A stretch of DNA of 49,854 bases from Candidatus Omnitrophota bacterium. GTDB taxonomy: Bacteria; Omnitrophota; Gorgyraeia; Zapsychrales; JBDRMG01. The translations under genes were made by a program, and so were the position numbers. Below, piece after piece: positions 41,339-46,163 of the stretch. Below the pieces are notes generated by a model, which was not told the DNA's origin, ran no database searches, and saw only the letters and a list, made by a program, of their open reading frames with translations. The stretch is taken from the NCBI GenBank assembly GCA_043812495.1, contig JBDRMG010000057.1, positions 1 through 49,854 of the forward strand, given 5' to 3'. The stretch's first letter is position 1; every line of letters starts with the position of its first letter.

Positions 41339-41719
41339 TTACTCTTTCTTGATTTGATCTTTAAGTTTTGAGAAGGTTTCAATGATTTTATTGAGCACGT
41401 GCTCTGATTCCGGGCTCAATGGATCAAACGTTAGGCGTGTTTCAAAAAGCATTCCTGTGATTTTCTCATGAGATTCCAGGACAGTGCCTTCAATATGAGC
41501 CGTTCCGGCAAGATAAGGGGTTTTGAGCTCGATACATAATTTTGTAGAAGGGGGATAGCGATGGCCGGCCACGAAGCACATTCCTCCCAGGCTGATATTC
41601 TTTAGTTGGGAGACATCGTGTTTTTGGGAGCGGTCATTTTTATCGCAATAGGAAATAATAAAGTTCTTCTCGATGCGAATATAATGCCTTCGTTCTTCCT
41701 GATCCCACTTTTCTTCCAT
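41339..41719 (-). CDS. PilZ-domain protein
   Basis: ERRHYIR and NISLGG; AGGAG RBS before ATG 41719. Confidence 0.9.
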   Translation of the reverse strand: MEEKWDQEERRHYIRIEKNFIISYCDKNDRSQKHDVSQLKNISLGGMCFVAGHRYPPSTKLCIELKTPYLAGTAHIEGTVLESHEKITGMLFETRLTFDPLSPESEHVLNKIIETFSKLKDQIKKE

Positions 41720-41748
41720 GATTCTTATGCTCCTTTTTGGAAAATTAA

Positions 41749-41870
41749 TCGGGAAGGCGGGACTCGCCCGCCTCGCCATTCGCCGTCGTAGGCGAATGGC
41801 GAGCGAGGTCTCGCCCCGCTTTATTCTTGCATTATGTCAGTATGCAAGAAGCGGGGCGGAAACCCGCGAC
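41749..41870 (-). pseudogene. duplicated 3' fragment of tRNA-Pro with a 94-bp insertion in the T-loop
   Basis: tcgggaaggcgggactcg + [41767-41860] + aacccgcgac matches 41899-41926. Confidence 0.88.
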
Positions 41871-41898
41871 TTTCAGTCCTTCTTCATCTTTCATATAA

Positions 41899-43704: not shown

Positions 43705-44412
43705 CTATCGCCAGATAAATTTTTCGCGAATAACTTCAAAGAGATAGGCGGCGCCCCAACGCAAGACTTGGAGTTTTCGCTCTCCCCCTTCTCTTCTGGG
43801 CTCATCACCGGGGATTTCGGCGATTTTGAGTTTGCGCTTGGCGGCGCGGATGGATAAAAGCGGCTCCCAGCTCACATCCGTATGGAATAACCGCTCTTCG
43901 GTTTGATAACTTTTGTCCTTATCAAGATCAAGATCGTAGATCAACTGCGTTTTGTAGGCCCGGTAAATGACCATGGCATCCGTATAGTGACCGCCGTGGA
44001 AAAGATTAATCAGCGATGTAAACATAAAATTACCAAAACCGGTGATGACATCATCATCATAGCTTTTGGCGCCTTTGGCGTAGCGGGAAACAATAACCAT
44101 GTCGTAATCGCCTTCTTTCATTTTATTGATGCAATCAGGAATCAATTCGGGAATAGAGTTTCCGTCAGGACTAAAGGTCAAGACCACGTCTCCCTTGATG
44201 TAAGGCAAGGCCTCATTGTAGGCCTGGCGAAGCCCCATTTTCTTCTGAATAATGACGTCATAACCTTGCTCTTTGGCGTATTCGGCTGTACCGTCGGTCG
44301 ATTGACCGTCGACAACAAGAATTTGGTCGCACCATTCGGGATTGATTTTGGGCATGATGGTCTTCATGCCTTCTATTTCATTGAGCGTGGGAATAAAAAG
44401 AGTGACTTTCAT
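43705..44412 (-). CDS. glycosyltransferase family 2
   Basis: IPTLNE, VVDGQSTDGT, SPDGN, VIVSRY. Confidence 0.92.
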   Translation of the reverse strand: MKVTLFIPTLNEIEGMKTIMPKINPEWCDQILVVDGQSTDGTAEYAKEQGYDVIIQKKMGLRQAYNEALPYIKGDVVLTFSPDGNSIPELIPDCINKMKEGDYDMVIVSRYAKGAKSYDDDVITGFGNFMFTSLINLFHGGHYTDAMVIYRAYKTQLIYDLDLDKDKSYQTEERLFHTDVSWEPLLSIRAAKRKLKIAEIPGDEPRREGGERKLQVLRWGAAYLFEVIREKFIWR

Positions 44413-44456
44413 AGATTTTTTCCTTTTAAGTTGGCTAGATGAACAACAAAAAAATG

Positions 44457-44522
44457 TCCGTCAACTTTGTAAAACAAAGTTGACGAGATCTCGCTATCCC
44501 GATGCCTCATCGGGATAGCGGA
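44457..44522. mobile_element. 66-bp tccg...cgagatctcg...cgga double-hairpin inserted in the CCA of tRNA-Gly
   Basis: removal restores GCCCGC-TCCA on the minus strand; same frame at 41767-41860 and 45174-45246. Confidence 0.8.
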
Positions 44523-44523
44523 G

Positions 44524-44594
44524 AGCGGGCGATGAGAATCGAACCCACGTATCAAGCTTGGAAGGCTTGTGTTCTACCACTGAACTACGCCCGC
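44524..44594 (-). tRNA. tRNA-Gly(TCC)
   Basis: GCGGGCG/CGCCCGC acceptor, CAAGC-CTTCCAA-GCTTG anticodon arm. Confidence 0.95.
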
Positions 44595-44616
44595 ATTTCA
44601 TTAAATCAGAGTTATA

Positions 44617-44734
44617 TGTTCTGCCATCCCGACATTCCTTCGACTTATCGTCGAAGTCAGTCGGGACCCCGACCTCCGACTTTTCTGTTTATTGGATTGT
44701 GGAAGTCGGAGTGTCGGGGCTGAACTACGCCCGC
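44617..44734 (-). pseudogene. duplicated 5' fragment of tRNA-Gly with a 93-bp double-hairpin in the D-loop
   Basis: tgttctgcca + [44627-44719] + ctgaactacgcccgc versus tgttctaccactgaactacgcccgc of the intact gene. Confidence 0.85.
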
Positions 44735-44775
44735 GCGTAAATCTACCTTAATTTTTTATTCAGAAAAGATTAAGC

Positions 44776-45051
44776 GCCCCGAGTTTCTCGATTATTACGG
44801 TTTGAAACGAGGGGCAAGTCTATTTAAGAGCTAATCCCTCGCGCTTGTCATTAAACAATGTGCGCTCGGGACAACAGTTTTTGTTTTCTAAATAAAGGAA
44901 TTAAGGAACAAAAACCGGTGTTCTGCTTCGCTCTAAGACTTACGTCTGAGAGCTTCGCAGCAACATTCTTCTTCGCCCTAGTAGGTTGATTGCTTCGAAG
45001 CCAAAGGCGGAGTCAGGCAAAGCCTGACGGAAGCACTTTGGCGAAGAAGAA
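44776..45051. repeat. cluster of hairpins between tRNA-Tyr and tRNA-Gly
   Basis: gccccgag...cgaggggc, tccctcg...ctcggga, tgttctgcttcgc...gcttcgcagcaaca (44919-44965), ttcttcttcgcc...ggcgaagaagaa (44966-45051). Confidence 0.8.
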
Positions 45052-45135
<84 letters not shown>

Positions 45136-45155
45136 GAGTTTTCATAAATATCTTA

Positions 45156-45521
45156 AGCCGATGAGAGGCTTCGTCCGTCATCCCGACTTTTCGTCTGGAT
45201 GACGAGATCTCGCCCGTCATTTGCCTTTGGCAAATGACGAGGCGGAAACCCCCGACCCGCTGATTACCCTCGCTATCGCTCGGGATTAATTCGCGCAGTA
45301 ACTTACGTCACTTATGTTCCGTAAGTTACGCGCTCATGAACAAATCAGCTGTCCGTCCCGCCTTTCCTCTGAATTAATTGTTGAGGTCGGGACTTGCAGG
45401 CTTTTCTGTAAATACATTATTGAAGCCGACACTTCGGCTTCCACAATAAAATATGAGAAGAGCCGAAGCGACTTCCAAAATGCAAAAAACAAGAAGAGTC
45501 GGAGCAGCTGAGCTACAAAGC
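45156..45521 (-). pseudogene. copy of tRNA-Thr(TGT) broken by insertions in T-loop, anticodon and D-loop
   Basis: segments agccgatgagaggcttcg / aacccccgacccgctgatta / caaatcagctg / cagctgagctaca match 45655-45727 in order. Confidence 0.85.
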
Positions 45522-45536
45522 ATCAAAAACTATAAC

Positions 45537-45862
45537 TGGAGCTGGCGAGAGGAATTGAACCCCCAACCCGCTGATTATCCCTCGCTATCGCTCGGGATCC
45601 CTCATGGAGTTAAGAAATCAATAAGGAATCCCGAGTCGATAGTTTTTCTAAAAAAGCCGATGAGAGGCTTCGAACCCCCGACCCGCTGATTACAAATCAG
45701 CTGCTCTACCAGCTGAGCTACATCGGCATTAAATTTTCTTTAATCGCCGAGGGACAAATCAGCTGCTTTATCCCGACTTTCCTAATCAAAAATTGTGGAG
45801 GTCGGGACTCCGACTTCCACAATTTAAAATGAGAAAAGTCGGAGCAATTGAACTACGCCAGC
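45537..45862 (-). pseudogene. outer tRNA-Thr(TGT) gene (GCTGGCG...CGCCAGC-TCCA) split in anticodon and D-loop
   Basis: 3' half 45537-45577, middle 45755-45770, 5' end 45845-45862. Confidence 0.85.
45655..45727 (-). tRNA. tRNA-Thr(TGT), intact, nested within the split outer tRNA-Thr
   Basis: GCCGATG/CATCGGC acceptor, GCTGA-TTTGTAA-TCAGC anticodon arm, TTCGAAG T-loop. Confidence 0.93.
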
Positions 45863-45959
45863 AATATTATTACACAAAATCATTTAATCAGCGGTTTAAT
45901 ATATCAGAATTATTCTCGACTGTAAAGCGGATCTTTTTGACAAATAAAATAAATTACCA

Positions 45960-46163
45960 TTACTTCTTGAAATAAATCTTATAAATCAAATAAACATACG
46001 TTACAAGAAAGATGGCACCGTACCAGTACCATTCCAGCTTTAGAATCGGAGTCCAGAGTTTGGCGACCATGAGGGTAAAGGCCATGACGCAGGTTTTTAA
46101 TATGCTGATATCCCAAACCGTCAATTTTTTGATCTTTTCATTCAGCCAGGCGATAAAATTCAT
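45960..46163 (-). CDS. small two-TM membrane protein
   Basis: 67 aa, AAAGGAG RBS, two hydrophobic segments. Confidence 0.75.
   Translation of the reverse strand: MNFIAWLNEKIKKLTVWDISILKTCVMAFTLMVAKLWTPILKLEWYWYGAIFLVTYVYLIYKIYFKK

Follow-up and report, generated by a model that had tools for sequence, protein, structure and literature searches.

A hairpin-bounded insert with a complete tRNA-Thr gene inside the anticodon of a likely older tRNA-Thr gene in an Omnitrophota genome

In a genome of Candidatus Omnitrophota, a tRNA-Thr(TGT) gene is split by a 177-base insert that is bounded by hairpins and contains a complete tRNA-Thr(TGT) gene of another allele. On balance we think it probable that the split gene is the older one and that the insert brought its replacement along as one unit, through the steps proposed below. 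If the cassette did enter in this way, the old gene would have died without leaving the cell short of a working one. The locus lies on the reverse strand of the window, by which we mean the whole stretch of 49,854 nucleotides that was analysed.

The nested locus and its two genes

The first-pass annotation, made from the letters of the window, had described an outer gene with acceptor GCTGGCG and encoded CCA, split in its TGT anticodon by positions 45578–45754, and an intact tRNA-Thr(TGT) gene with acceptor GCCGATG inside the insert at 45655–45727; both descriptions hold, coordinates included. Beyond these, we find a third, thrice-interrupted Thr copy as well as Tyr and Gly relics downstream. 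The features are, in the direction of transcription:

45898–45926, minus strand: sigma-70-like promoter match ahead of the Thr-Tyr-Gly cluster, by consensus only
45845–45862, minus strand: outer (likely older) tRNA-Thr, positions 1–18, acceptor GCTGGCG
45771–45844, minus strand: D-loop insert of the outer Thr gene, 74 nt, a secondary hairpin doublet (units 45808–45844 and 45771–45807)
45755–45770, minus strand: outer Thr gene from the D-stem 3' strand to anticodon base 35
45578–45754, minus strand: 177-nt cassette between anticodon bases 35 and 36, without an ORF and with no target duplication beyond a one-base ambiguity
45728–45754, minus strand: hairpin A left arm (45748–45754) and AT-rich leader of the inner gene
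45655–45727, minus strand: inner, intact tRNA-Thr(TGT), acceptor GCCGATG
45598–45654, minus strand: trailer, hairpin A right arm (45629–45635, stem extending inward) and a spacer able to form an alternative long stem with hairpin B
45578–45597, minus strand: hairpin B, an imperfect palindrome of 20 nt that contains tandem G-A mismatches and is the hairpin A unit in reverse complement
45537–45577, minus strand: outer Thr gene 3' half, from base 36 to the encoded CCA
45156–45516, minus strand: third, dead tRNA-Thr copy of the inner type, thrice interrupted (pieces 45505–45516, 45341–45355, 45247–45266 and 45156–45173)
45356–45504, 45267–45340 and 45174–45246, minus strand: inserts of the third copy in the D-loop, at anticodon position 35/36 and in the T-loop
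45052–45135, minus strand: intact tRNA-Tyr(GTA)
44777–44871, minus strand: gene-less doublet of the cassette's hairpin family in B...A order, tentatively within a short Tyr variable-arm relic
44618–44734, minus strand: tRNA-Gly 5' relic (44720–44734 and 44618–44626), split by a D-loop hairpin doublet at 44627–44719
44523–44594, minus strand: intact tRNA-Gly(TCC)

The promoter match agrees at 10/12 positions and has a TG extension, although with one seen against 2.2 expected in shuffles it is not significant alone. The outer gene is split exactly at TG|T, between positions 35 and 36, and its fragments fold as one cloverleaf: when the three pieces are joined by a script, ARAGORN, with its score threshold lowered to 90%, returns a 75-nt tRNA-Thr(tgt) with full acceptor, anticodon and T stems. 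The D-loop insert and D-stem mismatch described earlier are both present, the mismatch as one broken D-stem pair, and one D-loop G is missing.

The cassette itself is a doublet, in which hairpin A holds the tRNA gene in its loop and is followed by hairpin B. Its termini are complementary over 7 nt (45748–45754 with 45578–45584). The pairing of tccctc with gaggga, initially taken to be the hairpin, is an alternative one, since the stems conserved across relatives join 45748–45754 to 45629–45635 (A) and 45591–45597 to 45578–45584 (B). The 326-nt block folds far better than its shuffles (z = −11.6, 0/100 as good), and the hairpin family has 43 pattern matches in this genome against 1 for a reversed-pattern control. 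The same hairpin B ends the anticodon insert of the third Thr copy, which has no tRNA cargo; that copy also has no 5' acceptor strand. An element like the one at 44777–44871 stands behind Tyr in two relatives (L020 and L031), and the hairpin family of the outer D-loop insert interrupts D-loops in L007, L018 and L020 as well.

The inner gene scores 64.8 bits against Rfam RF00005 and is the sole intact Thr(TGT) gene in the 90%-complete assembly. Among the 412,500 codons in long stop-free frames of this genome, 5453 are ACA, which is thus common, so that by standard decoding rules an intact Thr(TGT) gene should be needed. The two genes differ at 15/72 positions, and the inner one is identical to the single Thr gene of a relative from the same family (G001). 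Thr loci were obtained from 56/60 relatives and, with the locus studied here, 56/57 have Thr(TGT). Acceptor GCTGGCN is the majority type among these loci of the order (35/56), and the outer GCTGGCG gene is thus likely the older resident. Inner genes are of the GCCGAYG type in 6/6 nests against 14/50 other loci (Fisher p = 0.0012, with kin that are not independent); in one one-sided nest (L024), the inner gene is GCTGGCG.

Stem pairs were scored in 28 nests (16 Thr, 10 Gly and the Cys and Phe nests of this genome; L079, L129 and L149 were left out). Inner genes have 3 broken pairs in total and outer genes 85, a number inflated by misalignment of the most decayed outer genes. Outer genes are broken or re-invaded in 24/28 nests, and 5/28 are, insert apart, as well paired as their inner gene. 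Judged by this pairing, the outer gene is a relic whose age varies between genomes, from recent to old. Had the inner gene been copied from the outer one, the copy would have acquired two or three compensatory pairs while its dead source kept its sequence, which could not happen; the inner gene is therefore foreign to the outer one.

Three further ideas were set aside. A general homogenization of inner and outer cores holds in L002 and in the Phe nest of this genome, whereas Thr nests overall show 0–11 core differences against a broad background. Inner and outer acceptors differ in 27/28 nests, but decay contributes to this and random alleles differ in 954/1540 pairs, so that a difference beyond chance was not retained. 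Tandem repeats of the E. coli tyrT type do not explain the locus, whose halves complement each other, are contiguous and belong to another allele.

Nests in other genomes and at other tRNA genes

The arrangement recurs. Two-sided TG|T nests were found at 6/56 Thr(TGT) loci, namely in the window and in 5/55 relatives of the same order (L002, L004, L006, L020 and L051), spanning families f1, f8, f9 and f10, three of them besides that of the genome studied here; a further three loci (L007, L024 and L030) hold one-sided or decayed nests. A strict nest pattern, which misses decayed nests, matched 4/401 genomes across the phylum, all in this order, and gave 0 in the control. On genome contigs, the Thr pattern yielded 19 loci, which comprise 12 two-sided nests (four already known), one one-sided nest, one empty element and five chance matches. 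The eight distinct additional nests are L083 and seven with unrelated hairpin families, in records labelled Doudnabacteria, Saccharibacteria, Giovannonibacteria, 'bacterium' or 'Gammaproteobacteria'; the Patescibacteria-labelled records thus show the same Thr layout with unrelated hairpins. A metagenome scan returned 21 loci, 9 relevant and 12 by chance, with nests at L142, L145 and L148, and L142 is the nearest in layout to the window nest among metagenome contigs. In 13/13 of the Thr nests listed, the junction lies exactly at 35/36, the halves are contiguous and there is no target duplication beyond a one-base ambiguity.

A looser left-junction pattern over 151 genomes stayed near the control rate (15/23 loci without a tRNA, the other 8 already known). 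The Thr nest pattern had 0 matches among viral contigs, which also yielded no protein related to the window's GIY-YIG and so, at that sensitivity, gave no sign of a phage carrier. In family f13, four loci (L010, L028, L029 and L064) have, behind Thr, a cassette with a right side only, which carries a repeat of the 3' end and is doubled in tandem in the last three; a cassette of this type also occurs at Thr(CGT).

The Thr nest is one case of a genome-wide pattern. Gly(TCC) is split at TC|C in two-sided nests at 11/22 loci, five others being chance matches and the rest partial, and one of these nests (L122) lies in the closed chromosome of Ca. Velamenicoccus archaeovorus, where the outer 3' half is followed by one more set of right arms. 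The genome studied here has nests at Cys(GCA), Phe(GAA), Val(GAC) and Arg(TCT), each with a different outer acceptor, and random windows in the same comparison yield such tRNA fragments in 4/410 cases. The Phe nest is split in the T-loop between 15-bp arms, and the Arg nest has 19-bp arms. Serial nesting, two or three deep, occurs in L073, L079, L122, L143 and L153 and reaches three levels in Val(GAC).

Several of these loci have features of their own. The Cys nest (C54:364–617) is split at the anticodon loop between arms of a related hairpin family, and its outer halves are still perfect. In the Phe nest (C10:32677–32950, L066), inner and outer genes share the anticodon-stem/T-arm core and differ only in the acceptor stem; among 29 other Phe loci of relatives, we found no such nest, and this core was seen in 0/29. 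Many relatives have an unusual Phe T-loop, CAGTGCAAG. In the three-level Val nest (C50:15376–16090), acceptor types alternate, and a GIY-YIG gene precedes it, itself standing behind duplicated tRNA 3' ends and copies of hairpin B. Tandem hairpin B copies with repeated flanks also lie at contig ends (C7:7–131 and C66:10–132) and may be collapsed repeats around a tRNA relic. A Pro 5' relic and a GIY-YIG gene stand at the end of contig C62, which suggests that the assembly may break at such cassettes; across the whole genome, no intact gene was called for Ile(GAT), Ala(TGC), Glu(TTC) or Pro(TGG).

Entry as a unit and its alternatives

We consider it likely, with fair confidence, that the cassette and its replacement tRNA inserted as one unit. 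In distant genomes, the GCCGAYG-type Thr gene occupies the same loop in the same orientation, with 22–37 nt between it and the junction; the distance is 23–29 nt for the window, L004, L006, L030, L051 and L142. This conserved position, orientation and acceptor type favours a cassette that inserts as a unit. The outer alleles of the distant nests differ and are often nearly pristine, which argues against one ancient event. The stem just inside the arms pairs better within than across loci (3/720 permutations, in 6 nests chosen by pattern), and strict arm complementarity falls at or below 7/200 shuffles in only 6/13 of the nests listed.

Of the two options offered at first pass, the element as carrier of its cargo is therefore the one that the conserved layout favours, and a later landing of the gene inside the element fares less well, though it could have happened here. 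In that history, an empty element would have killed the outer gene while the third copy (45156–45516) covered for it, and an intact gene would afterwards have recombined into the loop. The third copy, which equals the inner gene letter for letter over pieces of 12, 11, 20 and 18 nt while the outer gene has several point changes, could have bridged the gap, making two steps possible at this locus. Empty elements with an intact copy beside them occur at the same Thr site in L031, L033 and L144, as does the window's own empty insert in the third copy (45267–45340), and the cargo tRNA sits in another loop in L145 and L148; capture thus seems to have happened more than once. However, separate landings in four families would not converge on one loop, orientation, spacing and acceptor type, and L002, L006, L142 and the nests of this genome's single-copy Cys and Phe genes have no spare copy nearby. 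Every level of a multi-level nest would, moreover, need two events and a temporary spare. Taken together, we regard the late landing as unlikely and retain joint entry, reading the variable cargo position as several cassette origins and the conserved layout as the spread of one of them.

It is likewise improbable that the same cargo cassette was moved, with no need of homology, by an HUH transposase (Y1, IS200/IS605- or RAYT-like) acting in trans on single-stranded hairpin ends. HUH enzymes leave no target duplication, and none is present here; the 20-nt palindromes are imperfect and strand-asymmetric and form an inverted doublet, a G immediately precedes the insert both at Thr and at the Tyr relic, and this genome has seven Y1_Tnp matches. 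Against this, none of the seven Y1 genes (two at contig ends of this 90%-complete genome) shows the cassette's hairpin family in its printed flanks of 220/260 nt, inspected by eye, whereas two GIY-YIG genes do. The left flanks of the 43 family copies share no target word, no common GTAG or CGTC tag is visible by eye at the hairpin foot in their flanks, and unrelated hairpin families use the same TG|T site.

The element does resemble small non-autonomous repeats. REPINs are defined as inverted doublets of short imperfect palindromes, and a compact, REPIN-like empty form of the cassette's element is found in L033. Palindromes of about 20 nt, inverted doublets, tens of copies and the lack of target duplication are all shared with REP/REPIN elements that have RAYT transposases (PMC3733652); unlike REPINs, the cassette inserts into tRNA genes and carries a gene as cargo. 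Terminal inverted repeats (7 nt) and dispersed copies (43 against 1 in the control) recall MITEs, which depend on a DDE transposase. Target-site duplication is required of a MITE, however, and is absent from 13/13 of the Thr nests listed.

We hold it very improbable that the insert is removed at the RNA level, like an intron or intervening sequence, with an outer gene that was or is functional and an inner tRNA as passenger. In one possible fold of the precursor, the outer acceptor and anticodon stems close around the insert, the tRNA-Asn of this genome has a true group I intron at position 35/36, and 5/28 outer genes are intact but for the insert. Yet a search of 44400–46000 found no Rfam intron match, including none to RF00028, while the same search finds the Asn intron at 80.6 bits; neither register offers a U at the 5' exon end together with a terminal G of the insert; and most outer genes, that of the window included, are decayed or re-invaded. 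The cassette shares with group I tRNA introns the position and the occupation of an essential tRNA gene without killing the cell, and differs from them in that rescue would come from a second gene copy at the DNA level, without splicing or a ribozyme core. Group I introns reportedly occur at position 35/36 in tRNAs of Patescibacteria. The Asn intron lies in tRNA-Asn(GTT) at C51:8274–8867 (L065) with an HNH-like ORF and is preceded by an old 5' half of Asn and by a GIY-YIG gene with a frame that enters the tRNA. Upstream of Gly in L113 and L129, a tRNA-Tyr apparently has a group I intron end before its 3' half, also at 35/36, by resemblance to the Asn intron.

That the locus is the remains of two decayed integrase islands, which restored the gene from the 5' side and from the 3' side, is highly improbable. 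Islands with anticodon-centred attachment sites are common (2083/3919), and 5'-fragment islands number 159 (PMC4383910). But the inner gene's acceptor stem departs from the outer one in both strands at once, its flanks form the complementary arms of a single element, the pieces are 27 and 77 nt apart, and the two tyrosine recombinase matches of this genome (PF00589) lie on other contigs, C16 and C18. The 177-nt insert has no ORF and hence no tyrosine integrase, no integrase-bearing long form was seen on either side in the relatives' loci examined, and there is no island-type displaced fragment with a shared att core, the old halves flanking the new gene on both sides and being contiguous at 35/36. 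The cassette resembles the tRNA islands of the Islander collection, as far as the available part of that source goes (PMC4383910), in that it enters a tRNA gene, often at the anticodon loop, and leaves a working gene and a relic. It departs from them in its length of 177 nt, in lacking an integrase and a duplicated att core, and in carrying a whole gene, leaving old halves on both sides and nesting inside itself.

Finally, an assembly chimera of tRNA repeats from several organisms is extremely improbable: the assembly is a metagenome-assembled genome and no read run containing the locus was found, but the same layout occurs in independent assemblies and in the closed chromosome of L122, the arms co-vary within loci, and contamination is 0.39%. 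The read check gave one run, with 5% of the words, and no RNA run; the resulting contigs matched only tRNA parts that are conserved in other organisms and, outside the nest, a single 265-nt piece, and recurrence was therefore used as the test of reality. On that basis, the nest is very unlikely to be an artefact.

Candidate nucleases, proposed mechanism and implications

Small GIY-YIG nucleases beside tRNA genes are our best lead for the mobilizer. Of the 16 GIY-YIG hits in this genome, 11 have a tRNA or tmRNA on their own strand no more than 600 nt away, compared with 2.5% of random segments. The proteins are diverse (median identity 34%) and mostly 80–100 aa long, and they match, below the cut-off, just the N-terminal part of the intron-endonuclease model, a match that leaves site specificity unaccounted for. 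Hairpin B directly precedes GIY-YIG genes at C29 and C50; at Val(CAC), a nuclease gene lies between hairpins B and A of the Thr cassette's family. The order of old 5' fragment, GIY-YIG gene and whole tRNA is seen at Arg(TCG), Asn and Asp in this genome and at Tyr in L145. A profile scan of L001–L091 and L111–L153 matched only L065 and L145 and found no nuclease gene in the Thr and Gly cassettes obtained. The endonuclease expected of a homing cassette is thus absent from these and present in the sister cassettes at Arg, Asn, Asp, Val and Tyr (L145), which look like autonomous relatives.

T4 SegB, a free-standing GIY-YIG enzyme encoded within a tRNA cluster, cuts tRNA genes and spreads its own gene along with neighbouring tRNA genes (PMC2330249), and the tRNA-adjacent GIY-YIG genes of this genome look analogous. 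SegB recognizes the T-arm and the recipient region is replaced, whereas the cassette leaves the old gene as split halves; the cassette is, furthermore, chromosomal, bounded by hairpins and in most cases free of a nuclease gene, and each candidate nuclease consists of one small domain.

We propose that a cassette would originate when a dispersed hairpin-doublet repeat with tRNA genes as its targets captures an intact tRNA gene in one of its loops, and would spread between related cells through DNA taken up from outside; this genome encodes ComEC and DprA. A nick or break in the resident anticodon region would be repaired from the donor, with the tRNA halves serving as homology, as in homing. 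The cut would likely come from one of the small GIY-YIG nucleases beside tRNA genes, acting in trans, a step that we regard as a possibility of nearly even weight. The inner gene would recreate the target and so leave the site open to further hits; it keeps the target, which implies no obvious immunity. Where inner and outer acceptor stems differ, a one-sided deletion would produce a mismatched acceptor, which would slow the loss of nests. Homing acts at existing insertion sites, and how each site was first entered falls outside this account.

More tentatively, and with more doubt than belief, we suggest that minimal hairpin cassettes, moved by tiny tRNA-adjacent GIY-YIG nucleases and entering essential tRNA genes with a full replacement on board, constitute a new class of mobile element that drives repeated, genome-wide turnover of tRNA alleles in Omnitrophota and Patescibacteria. 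Under that reading, plain GCCGAYG genes in relatives would be collapsed nests. The cassette falls under the known principle of mobile DNA that restores tRNA genes and would be categorically new if the small GIY-YIG proteins are its mobilizers. In the literature covered, which includes few subscription journals, we found no description of nested replacement tRNA genes, and the available part of a preprint on tRNA introns in Asgard archaea (10.64898/2026.10.13.758758) mentions neither nesting nor bacteria.

Besides splicing and the restoration of partial genes, bringing the whole gene along would be a third route into an essential single-copy gene. If this is true, core tRNA genes of these host-dependent bacteria have been horizontally replaced repeatedly, with their history kept in nested layers, and many uncharacterized GIY-YIG proteins of 80–100 aa beside tRNA genes acquire a testable role. 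Programs that find islands by tRNA fragments will misread nested loci. The L122 nest, being in the closed genome of an enriched organism, Ca. Velamenicoccus archaeovorus, makes RNA and population tests feasible.

Related structures occur beside other tRNA genes. Downstream of tRNA-Tyr in L005 and L027, short heptamer-like tandem repeats are followed by an ORF that, we presume, resembles the four-helix-bundle proteins of intervening sequences (IVS). Elsewhere in the window, a 3' relic behind tRNA-Pro(GGG) is split in its T-loop by a hairpin doublet (41690–41898), and a tandem duplication of a hairpin block of about 150 nt stands behind tRNA-Lys(CTT), together with a small GIY-YIG gene (370–1090, match at 840–1055).
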